Part shown: one piece after another, positions 4,832 to 12,403 of the stretch
How the letters are laid out: each line of letters begins with the position of its first letter
Numbering within the stretch: the first letter of the stretch is position 1
Assembly (NCBI GenBank): GCA_964012805.1
Contig: CAXGUD010000032.1
Coordinates: 1 to 42,702 of the forward strand
DNA: 42,702 bases
Source: an uncultured Bacteriovoracaceae bacterium
GTDB lineage: Bacteria; Bdellovibrionota; Bacteriovoracia; Bacteriovoracales; Bacteriovoracaceae
Direction of reading: 5' to 3'
Position numbers and translations under genes: made by a program
Notes under the pieces: generated by a model
The model's input: only the letters and a program-made list of their open reading frames with translations
What the model was told of the DNA's origin: nothing
Databases searched by the model: none

Positions 4832-7800
4832 ATGTCATTAAAAAGAAAAATTACTTCACTACTTAATAAATCCGGAGACCTATCACTCCAATTATTTTTA
4901 TTAATTATGTTTGGTTATTTTCTAATCATTCTTGCCATTTTCACTTACCGATACCAAAATTTAAAACAAATTGAGCAAAAAAATATAGAAAAAGAAATAA
5001 AAGAGTTCTCCAAGAGTTTTTCCTCACCAATTGGAAAGCATCTATTTGAAAAGAAAAAAAATTTACTAATAGAAAATATAAATAAAATTTTAGAAAAAGA
5101 AATAATAACAGGGGTTAAAATAACGGACCCTTTTAGAAATCACATTGAAAGTAAGGGAACTACAACTGAATACTTATTGAAAAAAGAAATTCCAATCAAT
5201 ATACAAATTAATAACCAAAAGGAAATGATTGGATACATGAACTATTACTCCGTGGAAGCGGTCATATTTCCTCGAATAAAATATAAATTGGTCAATTTAT
5301 TATTTAAGTTATTTTTAGAGTTTTTAATTCTTAGCATATTTTTATATTTATTTTTATTAAAAAATATTAAAAAGCCTCTAAGAGAAATTGTTAAACAAAT
5401 GTCTCTTATGAAGCCTAAAGAGTTATCTAAAGTTGCTGTGTCATCATCGCTAAGTGGGATCGATTTGTTAAGAGACTCTTTTAATCAGATGGTTTCAAAG
5501 ATTTCCCAACATAAAAAAACTTACGAAGAAAAAAATCAAGCGCTTAAAGATATCGATCTACAAAAAACAAATTTCTTCAAAAATATTTCAGTTGAATTAC
5601 AAACACCTCTTAACCTAATCATTGAACCATTGGAAAACCTACACCAAAAATACCTGGAAGAGGAACATTTTGGTACTGCTTTAAAAAATTCAAAAAAGCT
5701 GTACCGGTTAGTTGAGCAACTTCTTGATTTTCAAAGTTTATCTATAGATAAAATGACGCAAAAAGACTGGCCGATAAATGTCTTTCACTTTTTAAAGCAG
5801 GTTCATTTCTTATTTCAAAGCACCTATAGCTTCGAAGATATTGATTTCAATTTAGACATCGAAAAGCTTGTTACTCACTCTGATGATGGAGAATCTACTC
5901 ACAAGGGTATCTTTATTCAGGTTAATCCAGAAAATTTAGAAAAAATAGTTTTTAACTTTCTTTCGAATGCTCTCAAGTTTACTGGTGAAGGAGGGAGGAT
6001 TACCCTAGGTGGGGAAAGAAGAGATAATATAATTCGAATTTTTGTAAGAGATTCAGGCCCTGGTATTCCCAAAGAGAAACAAGAAAAAGTATTCGAAATC
6101 TTTGGCCAACTTGATCCAGATCCAACTTCAACATTTGAAGGTACCGGACTTGGACTTGCTTTAAGTAAAGAATTGACAATAAAAATGAAAGGAAAAATTG
6201 GAATTGAAAGTGAACCAGGTCATGGTAGCGAGTTTTTTTGTGAATTTAAAGAAATAGATTACGATAAAGAAGAATTGGACATACTGATTTTAGAAGATGA
6301 AATAGATACCGCAAATACTCTAGAAATGATTTTAGAAAAACTTCCAGAAACACCTAAATATAAAATTGCTCTAAGTTCAGAAGAAGGACGTAAAATTCTA
6401 GAAGATAATCAAGTCAAATTAGTTATCGCTGATTCAAGGTTACCTGGAGAAGGTGGTATTAGCTTTTTGGAGTTTATAAGAGATACTCAACCACAAACAA
6501 AAAAAATATTACTTACAGGTGATACTGATTATGAGGCATTAAAAAATGCTCATAATCATGCAAAAGTCGATACAATTATTTTTAAACCCTGGGATGAACA
6601 TTTTCTACTAAAAACGATAGATGAACTCCTTCAATTCTTCGGTAGTAATATTAAAAATTCTCTTTATCTCAAAACAAGAATTGATATAAAAAAGGATAAG
6701 GAAGAAGAGGAAGGGGATGACGAATCTGTTCTTTCTGAGGTAGAAGAAACTAGAACTCAGAGAGTTATACTTATTGTTGATGATATTAAAGACATGAGAA
6801 ATCTTATTTCAAAAGAACTAAGGGAAAAAGGCTTCAAAGTAATTTCTAGAAGTAATGGCCTTAATGGATTTGAAGCCGCTAAGCAGTTTTCTCCCGATTT
6901 AATTATAACCGATTGGATGATGCCTATTATGAATGGGCCTGAAATGATTTCAAAAATTAAGAAATATGAAGAAATTTCTAATATTCCGATAATAATCCTA
7001 ACTTCCAAGGCAGAACAGGAAAGCAGGATTAAAGGAATTGATATTGGAGCAGATAATTACTTATCAAAACCATTTAAAATTCAGGAATTAATCAGCAATA
7101 TTTATAACCTGATTGAATTGAAAGAAAATGAGAAAAAACTAACTACAGCAAATAATGAACTTCAAGAGAAACAATCTGCTATTCAAAATCTCCTTGAGAA
7201 CTTGGGCCAAGGTTTTCTTATATTTAATGAAAAAGCTGTTGTCTTACCGGGTTGCTCTGAAGTAACAAAAGACTTTTTTGGAACTGACCCCACATCAAAG
7301 TTCTTTTACGATGTAATTTCACTTAATGAAAATCAAAAGAAAACATTTATGAGTTGGATAAAAAATGTATGGAAAGGTAATTTCTCATTTAAAGATATGC
7401 TTCCCTTAGCCCCTAAAATGTATGAAGAGGAAGAAAAGTATATTCAACTCAATTACAGACCTATATATGGACCTAATGGAAATCTCGAAAAAATAATTTG
7501 CGTTGCCACAAATAAGACACAAGAAAGAAAGCTTGAAATTAAAACAAAAAATGAAAGAGAAAAGATTCAGATGATTTTAAAAATATTAAAAGATCCACTT
7601 GGTTTCCAAAATGTCATTGATACGACTTACTCTACCTTTAATTTATTTGAAGTAGAACTTAATAAGAACCCAAGTGATATAGATATAACGTATATTTATA
7701 GAAAAACACATACATTAAAAGCACTCTTCGGTTCTTTCTCAGTTCCCGAAATACCTTCAATCCTGAATAACTTTGAAAGCCTGCTTTCAAGGATTAAGGA

Positions 7801-8611
7801 TAAAAATGATAAGGGTAATGATATATCAAGAAGCTCTGTTGTAAGGATTAAAAAAGAAGTTCTTGAAATTTTCACAAAATTTAACAGTTTTACAAAAAAG
7901 AATCGTATTTTAATTGAGCAAACATCAACGAAGGGAAATATTGATAAAAAAGCTGTTTCTATGGAAGATATATATGAAGTGGCCCATACAATTGAGAGTA
8001 CTCTTTCCAAAGACCATCCAATATATATTAACTTTGTTGACGACTTTATCTTAGAAAACATAGCTGTTCCTTTCATAAAGCTCAAAGAAAAATATGAAGA
8101 ATTATCAGAGAAAAAAGGTAAGCCTCTGAATTTTGAAATTGCTTCAACTAAAACGAGGGTTCGGCAAGATTTTTATAATTCTTTTTTTGAAATGAGCCCC
8201 TATCTACTCAACTGTCTAACTGATTATGATCTAGAAACAGCACAAGAAAGAGAAGTATTAGGTAAAGAAAAAAACAACTCTATTAGGATCAGCTTTGAAG
8301 AAACGGCTTCTAAAATGGAAAAGAAGTATATAATTATTAATATTTCTTCTGATGGAAGGGGCATTGATGAAGAAAAATTAAAAACCCTCTTTGAAAAAGC
8401 GGTTCCTAAAGACCTCACTCCTTTTTTTAAATCAGATAACCTTTATCAGATCTTTGGCAAGGATTTTTCTCAAGAAATTATTGGTGTTCACAATCTTATT
8501 GAAGAAATTGAGAATATGAAAGGAAGCATAAAAATCTCATCCAAATCAAATAATGGTTTTCAATTTATTATTAAGGTTCCCTTCGTCAAGTATTCTCCGC
8601 AAGCTCACTAA
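4832..8611 (+). CDS. Membrane hybrid sensor kinase A: TM-sensor-TM-HAMP-HisKA(H->V)-HATPase-REC-REC-PAS-like-Hpt-degenerate CheA-type HATPase
   Basis: Two hydrophobic segments. H-box reads NISVELQTPL. N box NFLSNALKF, G1 DSGPGI, G2 GTGLGL. REC motifs IADSRLP..KPW and ITDWMMP..KPF. Hpt RKTHTLKA. The C-terminal ATPase keeps only DGRGID. Confidence 0.9.
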   Translation: MSLKRKITSLLNKSGDLSLQLFLLIMFGYFLIILAIFTYRYQNLKQIEQKNIEKEIKEFSKSFSSPIGKHLFEKKKNLLIENINKILEKEIITGVKITDPFRNHIESKGTTTEYLLKKEIPINIQINNQKEMIGYMNYYSVEAVIFPRIKYKLVNLLFKLFLEFLILSIFLYLFLLKNIKKPLREIVKQMSLMKPKELSKVAVSSSLSGIDLLRDSFNQMVSKISQHKKTYEEKNQALKDIDLQKTNFFKNISVELQTPLNLIIEPLENLHQKYLEEEHFGTALKNSKKLYRLVEQLLDFQSLSIDKMTQKDWPINVFHFLKQVHFLFQSTYSFEDIDFNLDIEKLVTHSDDGESTHKGIFIQVNPENLEKIVFNFLSNALKFTGEGGRITLGGERRDNIIRIFVRDSGPGIPKEKQEKVFEIFGQLDPDPTSTFEGTGLGLALSKELTIKMKGKIGIESEPGHGSEFFCEFKEIDYDKEELDILILEDEIDTANTLEMILEKLPETPKYKIALSSEEGRKILEDNQVKLVIADSRLPGEGGISFLEFIRDTQPQTKKILLTGDTDYEALKNAHNHAKVDTIIFKPWDEHFLLKTIDELLQFFGSNIKNSLYLKTRIDIKKDKEEEEGDDESVLSEVEETRTQRVILIVDDIKDMRNLISKELREKGFKVISRSNGLNGFEAAKQFSPDLIITDWMMPIMNGPEMISKIKKYEEISNIPIIILTSKAEQESRIKGIDIGADNYLSKPFKIQELISNIYNLIELKENEKKLTTANNELQEKQSAIQNLLENLGQGFLIFNEKAVVLPGCSEVTKDFFGTDPTSKFFYDVISLNENQKKTFMSWIKNVWKGNFSFKDMLPLAPKMYEEEEKYIQLNYRPIYGPNGNLEKIICVATNKTQERKLEIKTKNEREKIQMILKILKDPLGFQNVIDTTYSTFNLFEVELNKNPSDIDITYIYRKTHTLKALFGSFSVPEIPSILNNFESLLSRIKDKNDKGNDISRSSVVRIKKEVLEIFTKFNSFTKKNRILIEQTSTKGNIDKKAVSMEDIYEVAHTIESTLSKDHPIYINFVDDFILENIAVPFIKLKEKYEELSEKKGKPLNFEIASTKTRVRQDFYNSFFEMSPYLLNCLTDYDLETAQEREVLGKEKNNSIRISFEETASKMEKKYIIINISSDGRGIDEEKLKTLFEKAVPKDLTPFFKSDNLYQIFGKDFSQEIIGVHNLIEEIENMKGSIKISSKSNNGFQFIIKVPFVKYSPQAH

Positions 8612-8627
8612 ACAAATACTACTTACC

Positions 8628-8655
8628 TTAATTTAAAATCATCAAAAACCGATAA
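8628..8655 (+). promoter_or_regulatory. Putative sigma28 (FliA)-type promoter of kinase B
   Basis: TTAA-N16-ACCGATAA ending 7 nt before the ATG at 8663; no SD sequence in between. Confidence 0.6.
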
Positions 8656-8662
8656 GTTTCTG

Positions 8663-11600
8663 ATGGTTACCTATGATAAAAAAGTAAGTTCAATTTCTAA
8701 TTTAACAAAGTATACCTTTGCTTTTTTTACTTTTATTTTTTCCATATCATTTATTTTTCAATTTTTTTTATATGTAGAAAATGAGAAAAAAGAACTTATT
8801 TCTAAAGTTCACTTTTTTATTTCAGAAAACAAATCATATTATAAAAGTTCCTTAAAATTATTAGATGTTAAGAAATTAGAAACGGAATTAAATAAAATAC
8901 AAAATTTTTCCTTCATACAAAAAGTTGAATTAATAATAGATTATAAAAATAAAAAGATTCAATCAAAAAATGAATCAAAGAACAAACTAAACTTAATAGA
9001 GTATCTAATTCCAAGCACTGCCACTGAGCCTCTTTCAAGTTTTAACTTGAACTATGATGGTTACTTTAAGTTTTCTATAAAACCAGGTCATATTTATAAA
9101 AAAATAATACCTGATCTTCGATTAGAATTAATTGAACTTTTTAGCAAAGTTATATTTATTAATTTAATTATTTTAATTATTATAAGAAACTTTCTTTTAA
9201 ATCCGATTAAAACTCTCTCTGAAAACCTTCAAAGGATTGATTGGGTTAACCTCCTCAAAACGCATGCACTTTTCCCTTTAGAAAATGAAATTAGTGTTAT
9301 GAAGAATTTGTTTAATAATTTAATTGATGAGCTTAAAAACTATCAATTTATTTTAAACGAACAAAACTTTAGACTTGAGGAGCTTTCAGGCCAAAAAACT
9401 CATTTTTTCCAAAATATGTCTCATGAAATAAGAACTCCACTCACACTAATTCTTTCTCCCTTAGAAAATTTATCAGCTAGGTACAATGAAGAAAGTGATT
9501 TTAGAACAGCTTTTTTAAACTCAAAAAAACTTTATAGACTTGTTAATAACTTCCTGGAATTTCAAAAACTCATTGCCAATAAAAAAATATCAGACATGCA
9601 TCCTATTAATGTTGTTGAATTTATGAATAATTACTTTTCAATGTTTACTGATAATTACTACTTAAAAGGTATTGACTTAAAGATTAAAATACCAAGAGAA
9701 CTGGAAAATAAAGACATCTTTATTCAAGCGGAAATTGATTCTCTAGAAAAAATTATTTTTAACTTTTTATCCAACTCACTTAAATTTTCACCAAAAGGTT
9801 CCAAAATATTTTTTGGAATAGAGAAAAAAGATCAATCAATAAAAGTATTCGTCAAAGATAGTGGTGTTGGTATACCAGTCAATAAACAGAAAGAAATTTT
9901 TGAAACATACCCAAATGAAGATAAACAAAAAGCTGGATTTGGTCTTTCTCTCGCAAAAAAACTTACTGAAAACATGGGCGGTTCCATAGGTTTTGAAAGT
10001 AAAATTGGTCAAGGAAGTCGTTTTTGGATTGAATTTAAAGAGTTAAAAAATATAAAAGAAACAATAGACCTTCTTATTGTGGAAGACGAAGAAGACTGTG
10101 TTGAGTCACTAGAAATACTAATCGAAAAGTTATCGCATTGTCATGGCTATAAAGTAGCCAAAAACTCAGAGGAAGCAAGAGAGTTACTTAGCAAATTTAA
10201 TGTTAAATGTATAATCGCCGACTCCCAAATGCCAGGAGAAGAGGGTACTAGCTTTTTGGCCTTTGCTCATAAGACTCAACCTAAGGCAACGAGGCTTCTT
10301 GTTACAGGAAGGGCGGACGAGTTTATTATTCAAAAGGCAACTAACGAAGCTAAAGTTGACTTCATTATATTTAAACCTTGGGATGAAGATGATTTTATAA
10401 AAATCCTCAATAATTCACTGAAAAAACCTTTTGAACAAGTCAAGTTTCTATTTGATGACTGGCAAATAGCTGACGTTCTGAATACAGATGACGAATCAAA
10501 TAAAAAATATAATGAAGTTCTTGATGAAATTTTATTTTATAATTCAAAAACCATTCTTTTTTGTGATGATCAGAATGAAATGAGAGAATTAATAAACTTA
10601 AAGCTCAAACAAGTAGGTTATAATACCATCTGTAGAGCTAATGGTAAACTTGGTTTAGCTGCAACTTATAAACATAAGCCAGATATTATCATTACCAATT
10701 GGCTCATGCCTGAAATGAGTGGCCCAGAATTAATTATAAAAATAAAAGAAGATGAAAACTTAAAAAATATCCCCATTATACTCCTTACAGCAAAGACTAC
10801 TGAAGAATGCAGGTCCATAGGTCTTGACTTTGGAGCTGATGCTTTTATAGGAAAGCCATTTGACTTTAGAGAGCTTAAATCTATCATAAAAAACCTTTTA
10901 AAGGTAAGAGCAACCGAAAGAAACCTTATAAAAGCAAATAATGAACTCATGGAAAAACAAGAATCAATTAAAACATTAATGGATAACCTAGAAGAAGGTC
11001 TTTTTACTTTTAATGAAAAAGGAATTATTCAACCTGGTTTTTCAAAGTCAACGATCGATATTTTTAACTGTGATCCAAGTTTCTTATCTTTTAGCGAAGT
11101 TCTAAAATTTGATAACAATCAAAAAAGACAGTTTAAAAAATGGTGTCATCAAATATGGTCTGGAAAATATGATTTTTTTGATCTCGTAAACCTGGCACCG
11201 AAAGTTTATATGAAAGGCGAATGTATCATAGAGCTTGACTTCAAACCCATTTATAAATTTAGAAATCAAAAAAAAGTTGTCGACTCAGTCATTTGTATAG
11301 CAAGTGACAAAACACAAGAAGTAAACCTTGAAAAAAAGTCACAGGAAGAGAAAATGAAGGCAAGAATGCTTCTTCATATCATAAGAGATCCACATGGAAT
11401 AAGAAAACTTACCCGCTATGCTTTATCTCTTCTTAATATTTTTTCTAAAGAAATTAAAGCTGAATATGAAAAAATGGACTTAGAAAAAATGGCTAAAATT
11501 ATTTACTATCTACAAGTTAAATTTGCCAGTCACTCAATTCACTATATTTATGAAATAACTCAAAAACTTGATAAAGCCTTTTTCTTTCTTAAGAATCAAG

Positions 11601-12403
11601 GTCCGTCTGAAAAAGTCCTCACAAATATAACTGAAACGGTAAATGAACTTAAAGAAAATATTGAAATATTTATTGAAGAGCAGAACAGTCTTTTTTTAGA
11701 CGATGAAGTTAGTAAAAAAAATATACGACTTATAGACCTCAATAGAATTCAAGTTTTGGCAGAAAATTTAAAAACAGAATTAGGTGATGAGCATAACCTT
11801 TATCAAGAATTTAAAAATAAATTTTTCTTTGAACAAATTTCAAAAAGTTTCCAAAAGTATAAGGAAAAAATAGAAGAGCTCGGTCAAAGAAAAGAAAAGA
11901 AAATTGAGTTTCAAGTTAATCCAAGTAATATAAAAATTGATGTAAATAAGTTTTTGCCATTAATTAACTCATTTATTCATATCTTTAGAAACTCAATTGA
12001 CCACGGTATAGAAACACCAGAAGAAAGGCAAAAAATGGATAAGTCCTCAGTGGGAAATATAAATGTTTCCTTTTTTACGGAGAATATAGAAAATAAAAAT
12101 TTTTTAAAAATCGTGTCAAGAGATGATGGAAAAGGAATTGACCCAAATGATATTCGCCAAAAAGTACTGAAACTCAAGCTTATGTCTAATGAAGAAGTAA
12201 GAAACCTCTCAGATGAGGAAACCATCCAGCTTATCTTTCTTCCTCACTTTTCCACTCGAAATTTTGCGACAGAAACATCCGGCAGAGGCGTTGGAATGGA
12301 TGAGGTGAAACATCAAGTTACGTCTCTTGGTGGTAAAATTCATGTTTACTCAATTCCAAAGAAAGGAACAACTATAACAATATTAGTTCCACTGGTCTCA
12401 TAG
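8663..12403 (+). CDS. Membrane hybrid sensor kinase B (paralog of A): TM-sensor-TM-HAMP-HisKA-HATPase-REC-REC(D->N)-PAS-like-Hpt(H->Y)-CheA-type HATPase
   Basis: H-box NMSHEIRTPL; NFLSNSLKF, DSGVGI. REC motifs IADSQMP and ITNWLMP. CheA P4 motifs HIFRNSIDHGIE, DDGKGID, FST...SGRGVGMD. Confidence 0.92.
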   Translation: MVTYDKKVSSISNLTKYTFAFFTFIFSISFIFQFFLYVENEKKELISKVHFFISENKSYYKSSLKLLDVKKLETELNKIQNFSFIQKVELIIDYKNKKIQSKNESKNKLNLIEYLIPSTATEPLSSFNLNYDGYFKFSIKPGHIYKKIIPDLRLELIELFSKVIFINLIILIIIRNFLLNPIKTLSENLQRIDWVNLLKTHALFPLENEISVMKNLFNNLIDELKNYQFILNEQNFRLEELSGQKTHFFQNMSHEIRTPLTLILSPLENLSARYNEESDFRTAFLNSKKLYRLVNNFLEFQKLIANKKISDMHPINVVEFMNNYFSMFTDNYYLKGIDLKIKIPRELENKDIFIQAEIDSLEKIIFNFLSNSLKFSPKGSKIFFGIEKKDQSIKVFVKDSGVGIPVNKQKEIFETYPNEDKQKAGFGLSLAKKLTENMGGSIGFESKIGQGSRFWIEFKELKNIKETIDLLIVEDEEDCVESLEILIEKLSHCHGYKVAKNSEEARELLSKFNVKCIIADSQMPGEEGTSFLAFAHKTQPKATRLLVTGRADEFIIQKATNEAKVDFIIFKPWDEDDFIKILNNSLKKPFEQVKFLFDDWQIADVLNTDDESNKKYNEVLDEILFYNSKTILFCDDQNEMRELINLKLKQVGYNTICRANGKLGLAATYKHKPDIIITNWLMPEMSGPELIIKIKEDENLKNIPIILLTAKTTEECRSIGLDFGADAFIGKPFDFRELKSIIKNLLKVRATERNLIKANNELMEKQESIKTLMDNLEEGLFTFNEKGIIQPGFSKSTIDIFNCDPSFLSFSEVLKFDNNQKRQFKKWCHQIWSGKYDFFDLVNLAPKVYMKGECIIELDFKPIYKFRNQKKVVDSVICIASDKTQEVNLEKKSQEEKMKARMLLHIIRDPHGIRKLTRYALSLLNIFSKEIKAEYEKMDLEKMAKIIYYLQVKFASHSIHYIYEITQKLDKAFFFLKNQGPSEKVLTNITETVNELKENIEIFIEEQNSLFLDDEVSKKNIRLIDLNRIQVLAENLKTELGDEHNLYQEFKNKFFFEQISKSFQKYKEKIEELGQRKEKKIEFQVNPSNIKIDVNKFLPLINSFIHIFRNSIDHGIETPEERQKMDKSSVGNINVSFFTENIENKNFLKIVSRDDGKGIDPNDIRQKVLKLKLMSNEEVRNLSDEETIQLIFLPHFSTRNFATETSGRGVGMDEVKHQVTSLGGKIHVYSIPKKGTTITILVPLVS

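Follow-up and report, generated by a model that had tools for sequence, protein, structure and literature searches.

What can two neighbouring sensor kinases do when each has lost catalytic residues that the other has kept? This question was raised by two paralogous genes, designated A and B, which lie on the same strand and 51 bp apart in a 42,702-nucleotide stretch of DNA from an uncultured Bacteriovoracaceae bacterium. The whole stretch, contig C32 of a genome (G000) of 4.47 Mb and 35% GC, is referred to as the window. Both reading frames are open (1,259 and 1,246 amino acids), and the two proteins align colinearly from end to end, with ∼36% identity across the cytoplasmic part. In each protein, Pfam matches to HisKA, two HATPase_c and two REC stretches follow the order of a class I hybrid kinase, although the HisKA match of A scored just below the cut-off (24.9 versus 26.9 bits). 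No named NCBIfam equivalog (LvrA, BarA, TorS, ArcB or CheA) reached its curated cut-off among the best 25 matches per protein, and the top likenesses, every one of them below the cut-off, were relays of the BarA/ArcB/TorS type. A frameshift, a pseudogene or an assembly artefact was ruled out by the open frames and by recurrence of the pair in a second genome of the same genus (G001) and in a further locus (L101).

A preliminary description of the window had claimed a residue-by-residue reciprocal pattern of losses, and every codon that it named was right: A carries V254, D534, D694 and H960 at the positions where B carries H254, D520, N679 and Y948. Also as described, the first HATPase domain was complete in A, and in B its lid was 6 residues short and the first Gly of the G2 box was lost. 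The CheA-type ATPase was degenerate in A, which has no N-box Asn, His of the DHG motif, G1 Asp, lid or SGRGxG (G2) box, and was intact in B by motifs, PDB match and structural model; the B domain matched the P4 domain of T. maritima CheA with an E value of 8e-30 and a template modelling score of 0.85 to 0.92 on target length. In the HisKA domain of A, E+1 and T+4 were retained and Gln replaced R+3, and distant orthologues had Ile at the His site. Neither A nor B combined the phospho-His of the class I unit with complete N, G1 and G2 boxes in one chain. In the CheA-type unit, the His acceptor and the ATPase clearly lie on separate co-encoded proteins; in the class I unit, the split is clear in A and we infer it in B. 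An ATPase without a His of its own and a His without a sound ATPase were thus found twice and cross-wise, and hence the nearest substrate of each ATPase would be in the other chain. The first ATPase of A is the predicted phosphoryl donor to B-H254, and the CheA-type ATPase of B is the predicted donor to A-H960. Complementation between A and B in some form is very probable, and a split of both kinases between the two chains is likely.

The genome itself provided a background for these losses. PAS-Hpt-ATPase modules gave 76 matches, 57 of them near full length, and among these 57 the Hpt His was missing only in B and the ATPase motifs only in A, the other 55 being intact. All of the modules beyond the A and B clades in fetched outside proteins (25/25) were intact as well. 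The His was kept in 33 of 34 HisKA-HATPase kinases of the genome, with A as the sole exception, and among 232 fetched class I cores it was missing in just 9 A-clade records and in one unrelated protein, P0050. The Arg/Lys/Glu set of the Hpt domain was lost together with the His in 8/8 B rows and was kept in full in 5/5 A rows and 33/33 paralogues. Judged by these sequence comparisons, the reciprocal losses are not a background of this genome.

Conservation was examined in G001, which has a syntenic A/B pair with identical losses. Between the window and G001, the ratio of nonsynonymous to synonymous substitution rates (dN/dS) was 0.054 for A and 0.064 for B at a dS near saturation (1.39 and 1.34, respectively), and that of five neighbouring genes was 0.02 to 0.065. 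Domains with losses were constrained like live ones: the HisKA domain of A was 96% identical, the second ATPase of A had a dN/dS of 0.03, and the first ATPase and the Hpt domain of B had values of 0.026 and 0.035. Protein searches added three full-length clusters to the A clade (85, 60 and 59% identity) and six clusters to the B clade (90 to 67% identity; 65% by global alignment). The A pattern was kept in 5/5 full-length A-clade sequences (to 59% identity) and in the fragment P0075, and the B pattern was kept in 8/8 B-clade rows (to 65% identity) and in L106. Neutral decay of a redundant duplicate, with which a narrow distribution would agree, was refuted by the open frames, by a dN/dS of ∼0.05 to 0.06 at a dS of >1.3 in every cytoplasmic domain and by the presence of the same losses down to 59 to 65% identity, and its probability is close to nil. 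These results bore out the proposal that the pair had undergone subfunctionalisation and not decay, with the losses rare in the genome and the same in relatives, and the reciprocal pattern was kept in both clades under purifying selection.

The tandem A-B order was seen directly in three loci, the window, G001 and L101 (an A orthologue followed by the start of B), with gaps of 51 to 57 bp. L106 carries a distant B with shared downstream genes, on a contig that begins within B. The longest contigs of two A-cluster and two B-cluster members were equal (12981 and 15058), which fits co-location without demonstrating it. An orthologous A/B pair was not found outside genus g1 in 236 genomes of the family and 400 of the phylum when two candidates per genome were scored with an A/B profile, and the pair was found solely in one genus and in unplaced metagenomic relatives. 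In G002, a 68% complete genome of the same genus, the pair was not seen, but both flanking genes were also missing and this genome was uninformative. A protein search for shorter forms detected only A fragments and more distant kinases.

A dead first ATPase in B is the weakest link in the reading of a split class I kinase. In distant B orthologues (P0027, the P0028 cluster and L106), the second G2 Gly was gone too, such that two of the three Gly were lost, and this further decay favors a putative inactivity of the B domain. If this domain were active, only the CheA-type half would be split, with B being a self-sufficient class I hybrid kinase and A a His-less, DivL-like accessory giving REC2 and the Hpt domain. 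Close B relatives keep H254 together with the Asn of the N box, the Asp of G1 and two of the G2 Gly, and loss of the first Gly is known in 14/208 other cores, but the lid deletion was present in every B row, the second Gly was lost in the distant rows, and the ATPase of A was complete without a His of its own in 5/5 rows; self-sufficiency of B is consequently unlikely. DivL-type pseudo-histidine kinases have a HisKA fold without the His and retain the ATP-binding domain. PDB 4q20, which we take to be a kinase of this type, was matched with an E value of 2.5e-17; A differs from these proteins in that its ATPase has a predicted substrate in the neighbouring chain and in that it carries live REC and Hpt sites.

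The place of the second kinase suggested how the two units could be connected. The same histidine kinase-REC(-REC) core ends in an adenylate or guanylate cyclase in two paralogues, C1 and C63, as well as in many relatives; as a cyclase stands behind the same core, REC2 would control whichever output comes next. Unfused REC-PAS-Hpt-ATPase genes were present at C33:23381-25237, one gene away from a class I kinase gene, and at C6:56108-58039, next to one; both are candidate receiver-controlled class III kinases. The linker from REC2 to PAS, which is helical and of 45 residues in A, had 38, 45 or 59 residues in 16 of 17 matched rows, and these steps of seven suggest a signalling coiled coil. Furthermore, 52 of the 57 modules carried no REC, so that their Hpt domains would be served by the ATPase. 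From the place of REC2 before the output, the unfused genes, the linker steps and the REC-less modules, a serial path is proposed, and the two kinases of the pair are probably in series.

Two other arrangements of an A/B heterodimer were weighed against this serial path. The preliminary description had proposed an AND gate over two divergent periplasmic sensors, which would mean independently active kinases working in parallel on different signals. Each kinase would indeed need both chains, and the periplasmic parts differ, with that of B evolving faster (54% identity and a dN/dS of 0.35, the least constrained part, versus 75% and 0.11 in A, window versus G001). However, a whole kinase and two REC domains lie between the membrane and the second kinase, which is wired behind REC2 in the place taken by the cyclase in paralogues, and relaxed selection on the B sensor equally fits a mainly structural role; a parallel AND gate thus became less likely and is now regarded as improbable. 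In the second arrangement, a His-Asp-His relay would run from B-H254 through a REC Asp to A-H960, and the CheA-type ATPase of B would be a second, independent input (an integrator or OR node). Relays of the BarA/ArcB/TorS type have the same HisKA-ATPase-REC-Hpt order, and the REC2 Asp and the Hpt His are both kept in A and both lost in B. Presence of the R-x-x-H-x-x-K..E set in 33/33 paralogous modules, together with the shortage of REC domains noted above, argues that the Hpt domain was built for the ATPase, and REC2 was kept in relatives with a cyclase output and no Hpt domain. Convergence on such a relay is therefore doubtful.

In the serial cascade, the first ATPase of A would phosphorylate B-H254 in trans across the A/B bundle and the phosphate would then move to Asp694 in REC2 of A; as B has N679, there would be one switchable REC2 per pair. 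Phosphorylated REC2 of A would act as an allosteric switch via the helical linker and PAS domain, and the CheA-type ATPase of B, once activated, would phosphorylate A-H960. This His would feed a response regulator encoded away from the locus, as no response regulator gene was found in the A/B locus and neither a CheX phosphatase nor a single-domain regulator was recognised among the flanking open reading frames. Output would require both genes, with homodimers silent at both tiers, which would amount to an assembly checkpoint on a cascade and not necessarily to a two-signal logic gate. An obligate A/B pair acting as a two-tier serial cascade in exactly this form has an even chance of being correct. 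The same balanced judgement applies to the general scheme of two histidine kinase classes stacked serially and both split cross-wise, in which the phosphoryl path would cross the dimer at each step and homodimers would be silent.

The geometry of the class I unit was compared with that of solved kinases. The stretch from the His to helix 2 was 3 residues shorter than in PDB 7z8n/7n0e_A, which we take to be GacS, and 6 residues shorter than in HK853. HK853 acts in cis, and as a short DHp loop would go with trans phosphorylation, these lengths fit a trans mode. Trans versus cis action is predicted by the handedness of the DHp loop, and trans action is reported for GacS (PMC8498467). A trans mode is plausible for the class I unit of the pair.

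Class III histidine kinases combine an Hpt domain and a CheA-type ATPase without CheW or a full dimerisation domain. The module family of A and B has an Hpt domain and a CheA-type ATPase without CheW, with A and B themselves doing so only when the chains are combined, and by this definition the family fits class III kinases; the genome also contains pilT (TIGR01420 above the cut-off at C22). AlphaFold2 models of the C-terminal modules of A and B had a mean predicted local distance difference test (pLDDT) value of 86 and 85, respectively. In both models, PAS is followed by a long helix and an Hpt-like bundle, then by two short helices and a GHKL fold, which is present even in the dead ATPase of A. 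Both chains terminate after the ATPase and have no CheW (P5) domain, and the modelled helices at the place of H-kinase_dim (P3) were of 15 and 10 to 11 residues, with no Pfam match. A CheW domain is reported for all CheA proteins, and their P3 consists of two helices of 26 to 28 residues (PMC10542144). A and B do not qualify as CheA, nor is either chain a canonical hybrid kinase. For CheW-less CheA-like kinases, a solved structure beyond the ATPase was not found.

A complex prediction was performed with the C-terminal modules of A and B only, in the presence of ATP and Mg. The score was 0.36, versus 0.00 for the best control, and is weak; runs agreed on at least 84% of contacts, with a partner pLDDT of at least 79. 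The mark for this score was reached by 116/157 solved pairs and 2/215 mismatched pairs, and at scores of ≤0.60 just 18 solved pairs and both mismatches reached it. The earlier claim of an obligate heterodimer with two split kinases was upheld by sequence for the complementary His and ATPase sites, which occur twice, and was backed weakly by the modelling of a physical complex that had been proposed as a check, whereas inactivity of the first ATPase of B is a deduction.

Pairing with other proteins was also considered. As the genome encodes 55 further modules as well as close class I paralogues, A and B could belong to a multikinase network in which each pairs with other paralogues, B being a RetS-like inhibitor or phosphate sink and A being pseudokinase-like. 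RetS no longer binds ATP and pairs with GacS in a heterodimer through the DHp domains (PMC8498467). However, the losses in A and B are exactly complementary, the tandem order with gaps of 51 to 57 bp is present in three loci, and the shapes of the A and B trees are alike, and we consider such a network to be of low probability.

Several observations weigh against an obligate, doubly split A/B pair. The three loci in which the tandem order was seen are all at ≥85% identity and do not include the relatives at 59 to 67%. The first ATPase of B retains the N-box Asn and G1 Asp at a dN/dS of 0.026 and may still work, the first G2 Gly is also absent in 14/208 class I cores that belong to neither clade, and odd G1 or G2 boxes are present in a few other kinases of the genome. 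Partners could also come from the other 55 modules or from several class I paralogues that are close to the pair, and the REC1 Asp is present in both chains without having a role in the model. Besides being weak, the complex score can also be reached by close cousins of a true partner, so that it would not separate AB from AA or BB. The heptad series of linkers rests on few independent lineages, as several rows are kin, and P0160, with 48 residues, is off register. The DHp-ATPase tree failed to resolve A and B as sisters. With five losses over two copies, a cross-wise split of both kinases would arise by chance with an estimated frequency of ∼1/4, and hence the pattern alone is no proof of selection for heterodimers. 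The case as a whole is built from sequence and models.

The origin of the pair was examined with trees of its domains. In a tree of both REC domains (28 rows), the A and B clades were sisters with support of 98/96, and in a module tree (90 rows, quick search) they were sisters with a value of 93 in the SH-like approximate likelihood ratio test. Each clade consisted of one close and one distant group, with similar tree shapes. Separate fusion origins of A and B are not favored, given the REC and module trees, with the DHp-ATPase tree being unresolved. Single-chain proteins with all four kinase elements intact were found in the same genome (C4:109624-113682, L013) and elsewhere (P0006, P0007 and P0160). 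The modules of C4, P0006 and P0007 were placed elsewhere in the module tree than those of A and B, which indicates that the two-kinase fusion arose more than once. As read from these trees, the simplest history would start from a single intact two-kinase sensor that was duplicated and whose copies then underwent complementary losses, the ancestor probably having the layout sensor-HisKA-ATPase-REC-REC followed by PAS-Hpt-CheA-type ATPase. A description of a single-chain fusion of class I and class III kinases was not found in the literature searched, in which coverage of subscription papers was incomplete. As side observations, L008 and L014 are partial single-chain proteins with class I and CheA-type parts. 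Directly behind tex, other genera have different signalling genes (L187:4172-5881 and L190:4180-6762), of which that of G021 is chemoreceptor-like and that of G023 encodes a hybrid kinase unrelated to the pair; the gene at this place in G145 is unrelated as well. No preduplication gene was present in this slot in G021, G023 or G145.

Each half of the arrangement has a precedent, and both together have no report that we found. FasB and FasC of group A Streptococcus resemble A and B by description in being tandem class I kinases reported to heterodimerise, in which FasC gives the essential His, its own ATPase being dispensable, and FasB gives the ATPase (PMC12675982). Unlike A/B, they form one kinase unit with no REC, Hpt or second ATPase described, and their cognate regulator is in the operon; FasB keeps its DHp histidines, and cis action was not excluded (PMC12675982). 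Heterodimers of histidine kinases are called rare in this source (PMC12675982), and a His-less hybrid kinase has been proposed to heterodimerise in Caulobacter (PMC10760086). In CheA3/CheA4 of Cereibacter (Rhodobacter) sphaeroides, as in A/B, the Hpt His and the CheA ATPase are on separate proteins, the His donor keeps a degenerate ATPase and the pair arose by duplication and loss (PMC10542144, PMC3591291). In contrast, CheA4 deleted P1 and B keeps a pseudo-Hpt domain, and the CheA pair has CheW domains and a chemoreceptor array, with no class I kinase and no sensor described (PMC10542144, PMC3591291).

RetS/GacS of Pseudomonas aeruginosa resembles the proposed A/B complex as a DHp-DHp heterodimer of two hybrid kinases, one of which, RetS, lost ATP binding, but their pairing is facultative and has an inhibitory effect, GacS is a complete kinase with activity as a homodimer, and the genes are not described as complementary duplicates (PMC8498467, PMC12189002). 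Class III kinases, which are cited in PMC6501615, share with the A/B module a sensor/PAS input, an Hpt domain, a CheA-type ATPase, the absence of CheW and of a full dimerisation domain, and the presence of pilT in the genome. In A/B, the module follows a whole class I hybrid kinase in a fusion that is split over two chains, and CheX and the single-domain regulator were not recognised in the locus. A double or cross-wise split kinase was not found to be reported in the literature searched, which covered subscription papers incompletely.

Known splits affect one kinase unit, whereas here the two copies of a duplicated receptor divided both kinases cross-wise, even though a simpler split, with each gene keeping one kinase, was available; the cross-wise arrangement was retained in relatives down to ∼60% identity. 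The organism is uncultured, and the range of the pair is narrow. The locus would offer a clean case of duplication, degeneration and complementation leading to an obligate heteromer, for which the genome itself provides controls in the form of intact single-chain paralogues. If correct, this would be the first example of a double split kinase. With a single active site in each tier, it would also be a native model for trans phosphorylation, half-of-sites asymmetry and activation of class III kinases. The pair also offers a handle on CheW-less CheA-like kinases, of which the genome has 57. The features of both genes are collected in Table 1.

Table 1. Positions in the window, residues and supporting evidence for the features of genes A and B
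Feature	Position	Strand	State or key residues	Basis
Gene A	4832..8611	+	Transmembrane-periplasmic-transmembrane-HAMP-like-HisKA-ATPase1-REC1-REC2-PAS-Hpt-CheA-type ATPase; live ATPase1, REC2 Asp and Hpt His; dead HisKA His site, degenerate CheA-type ATPase	Sequence and models
A periplasmic sensor domain	4952..5308	+	Weak CHASE5 likeness	Pfam CHASE5 E 0.005 (below cut-off), hydrophobic helices on both sides
A HisKA/DHp	5537..5746	+	No phospho-His: V254 (codon 5591)	Motif alignment
A first ATPase	5747..6265	+	N, G1, lid and G2 boxes all complete	Motifs; dN/dS 0.023
A REC1	6266..6646	+	D534 intact	Pfam and motif
A REC2	6758..7126	+	D694 intact; sole phosphorylatable REC2 in the pair	Pfam and motif
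A PAS-fold domain	7139..7531	+		Pfam PAS_4 E 0.003; AlphaFold2 secondary structure
A Hpt/P1-like helical bundle	7532..7921	+	R957, H960 (codon 7709), K963, E982	Motifs, model; Pfam Hpt E 0.26
A CheA-type ATPase	8069..8611	+	Degenerate, fold retained	Motifs, AlphaFold2; dN/dS 0.03
Gene B	8663..12403	+	Domain order as in A; H254, degraded ATPase1, REC1 Asp, REC2 Asn, His-less Hpt, intact CheA-type ATPase	
B HisKA/DHp	9368..9577	+	H254 (codon 9422)	Motif
B first ATPase	9578..10054	+	Lid 6 residues short, first G2 Gly gone	Motif alignment
B REC1	10055..10435	+	D520 intact	Pfam and motif
B REC2 pseudo-receiver	10544..10912	+	N679 (codon 10697)	Motif
B pseudo-Hpt	11327..11707	+	K945, Y948 (codon 11504), Q951 and D970 replace R, H, K and E	Motif; dN/dS 0.035
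B CheA P4-type ATPase	11834..12403	+	Intact; CheW domain not behind it	Motif, PDB match, model

The HAMP region of A was assigned by position and pattern, with no Pfam HAMP match. A scan of the locus for promoters and terminators gave nothing above chance level. In the intergenic region (window 8640-8665), the 20 bases ahead of the B ATG were almost invariant across the three loci, and a hairpin covering this ATG was predicted for the window sequence; a clear Shine-Dalgarno sequence was not seen there. These conserved bases and the hairpin could possibly couple translation of A and B.

Among the best 150 representatives, no other split pair of independent origin was seen. P0050, a partial record of an unrelated hybrid kinase with the same core type, has Asn in place of the phospho-His and an unusual REC2 box, and from these residues it could belong to an independent split pair. 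L103:8262-13921 encodes tandem paralogous hybrid kinases of the same core family in which the His and G2 box are intact in both. Forms with a cyclase output were located at C63:2706-6335 and C1:100311-103502 and in L006, and 7TM-DISM-type sensors were present in relatives. The same output slot is occupied in the Kinase-REC-REC-PAS proteins L019:6270-10193, L028:2849-6577 and P0141 by a conserved C-terminal helical domain of ∼400 residues, from which the Hpt His and the ATPase motif are absent. The 57 near full-length CheW-less PAS-Hpt-CheA-type modules in a genome of 4.5 Mb represent a very large, class III-like expansion with varied N-terminal sensors.

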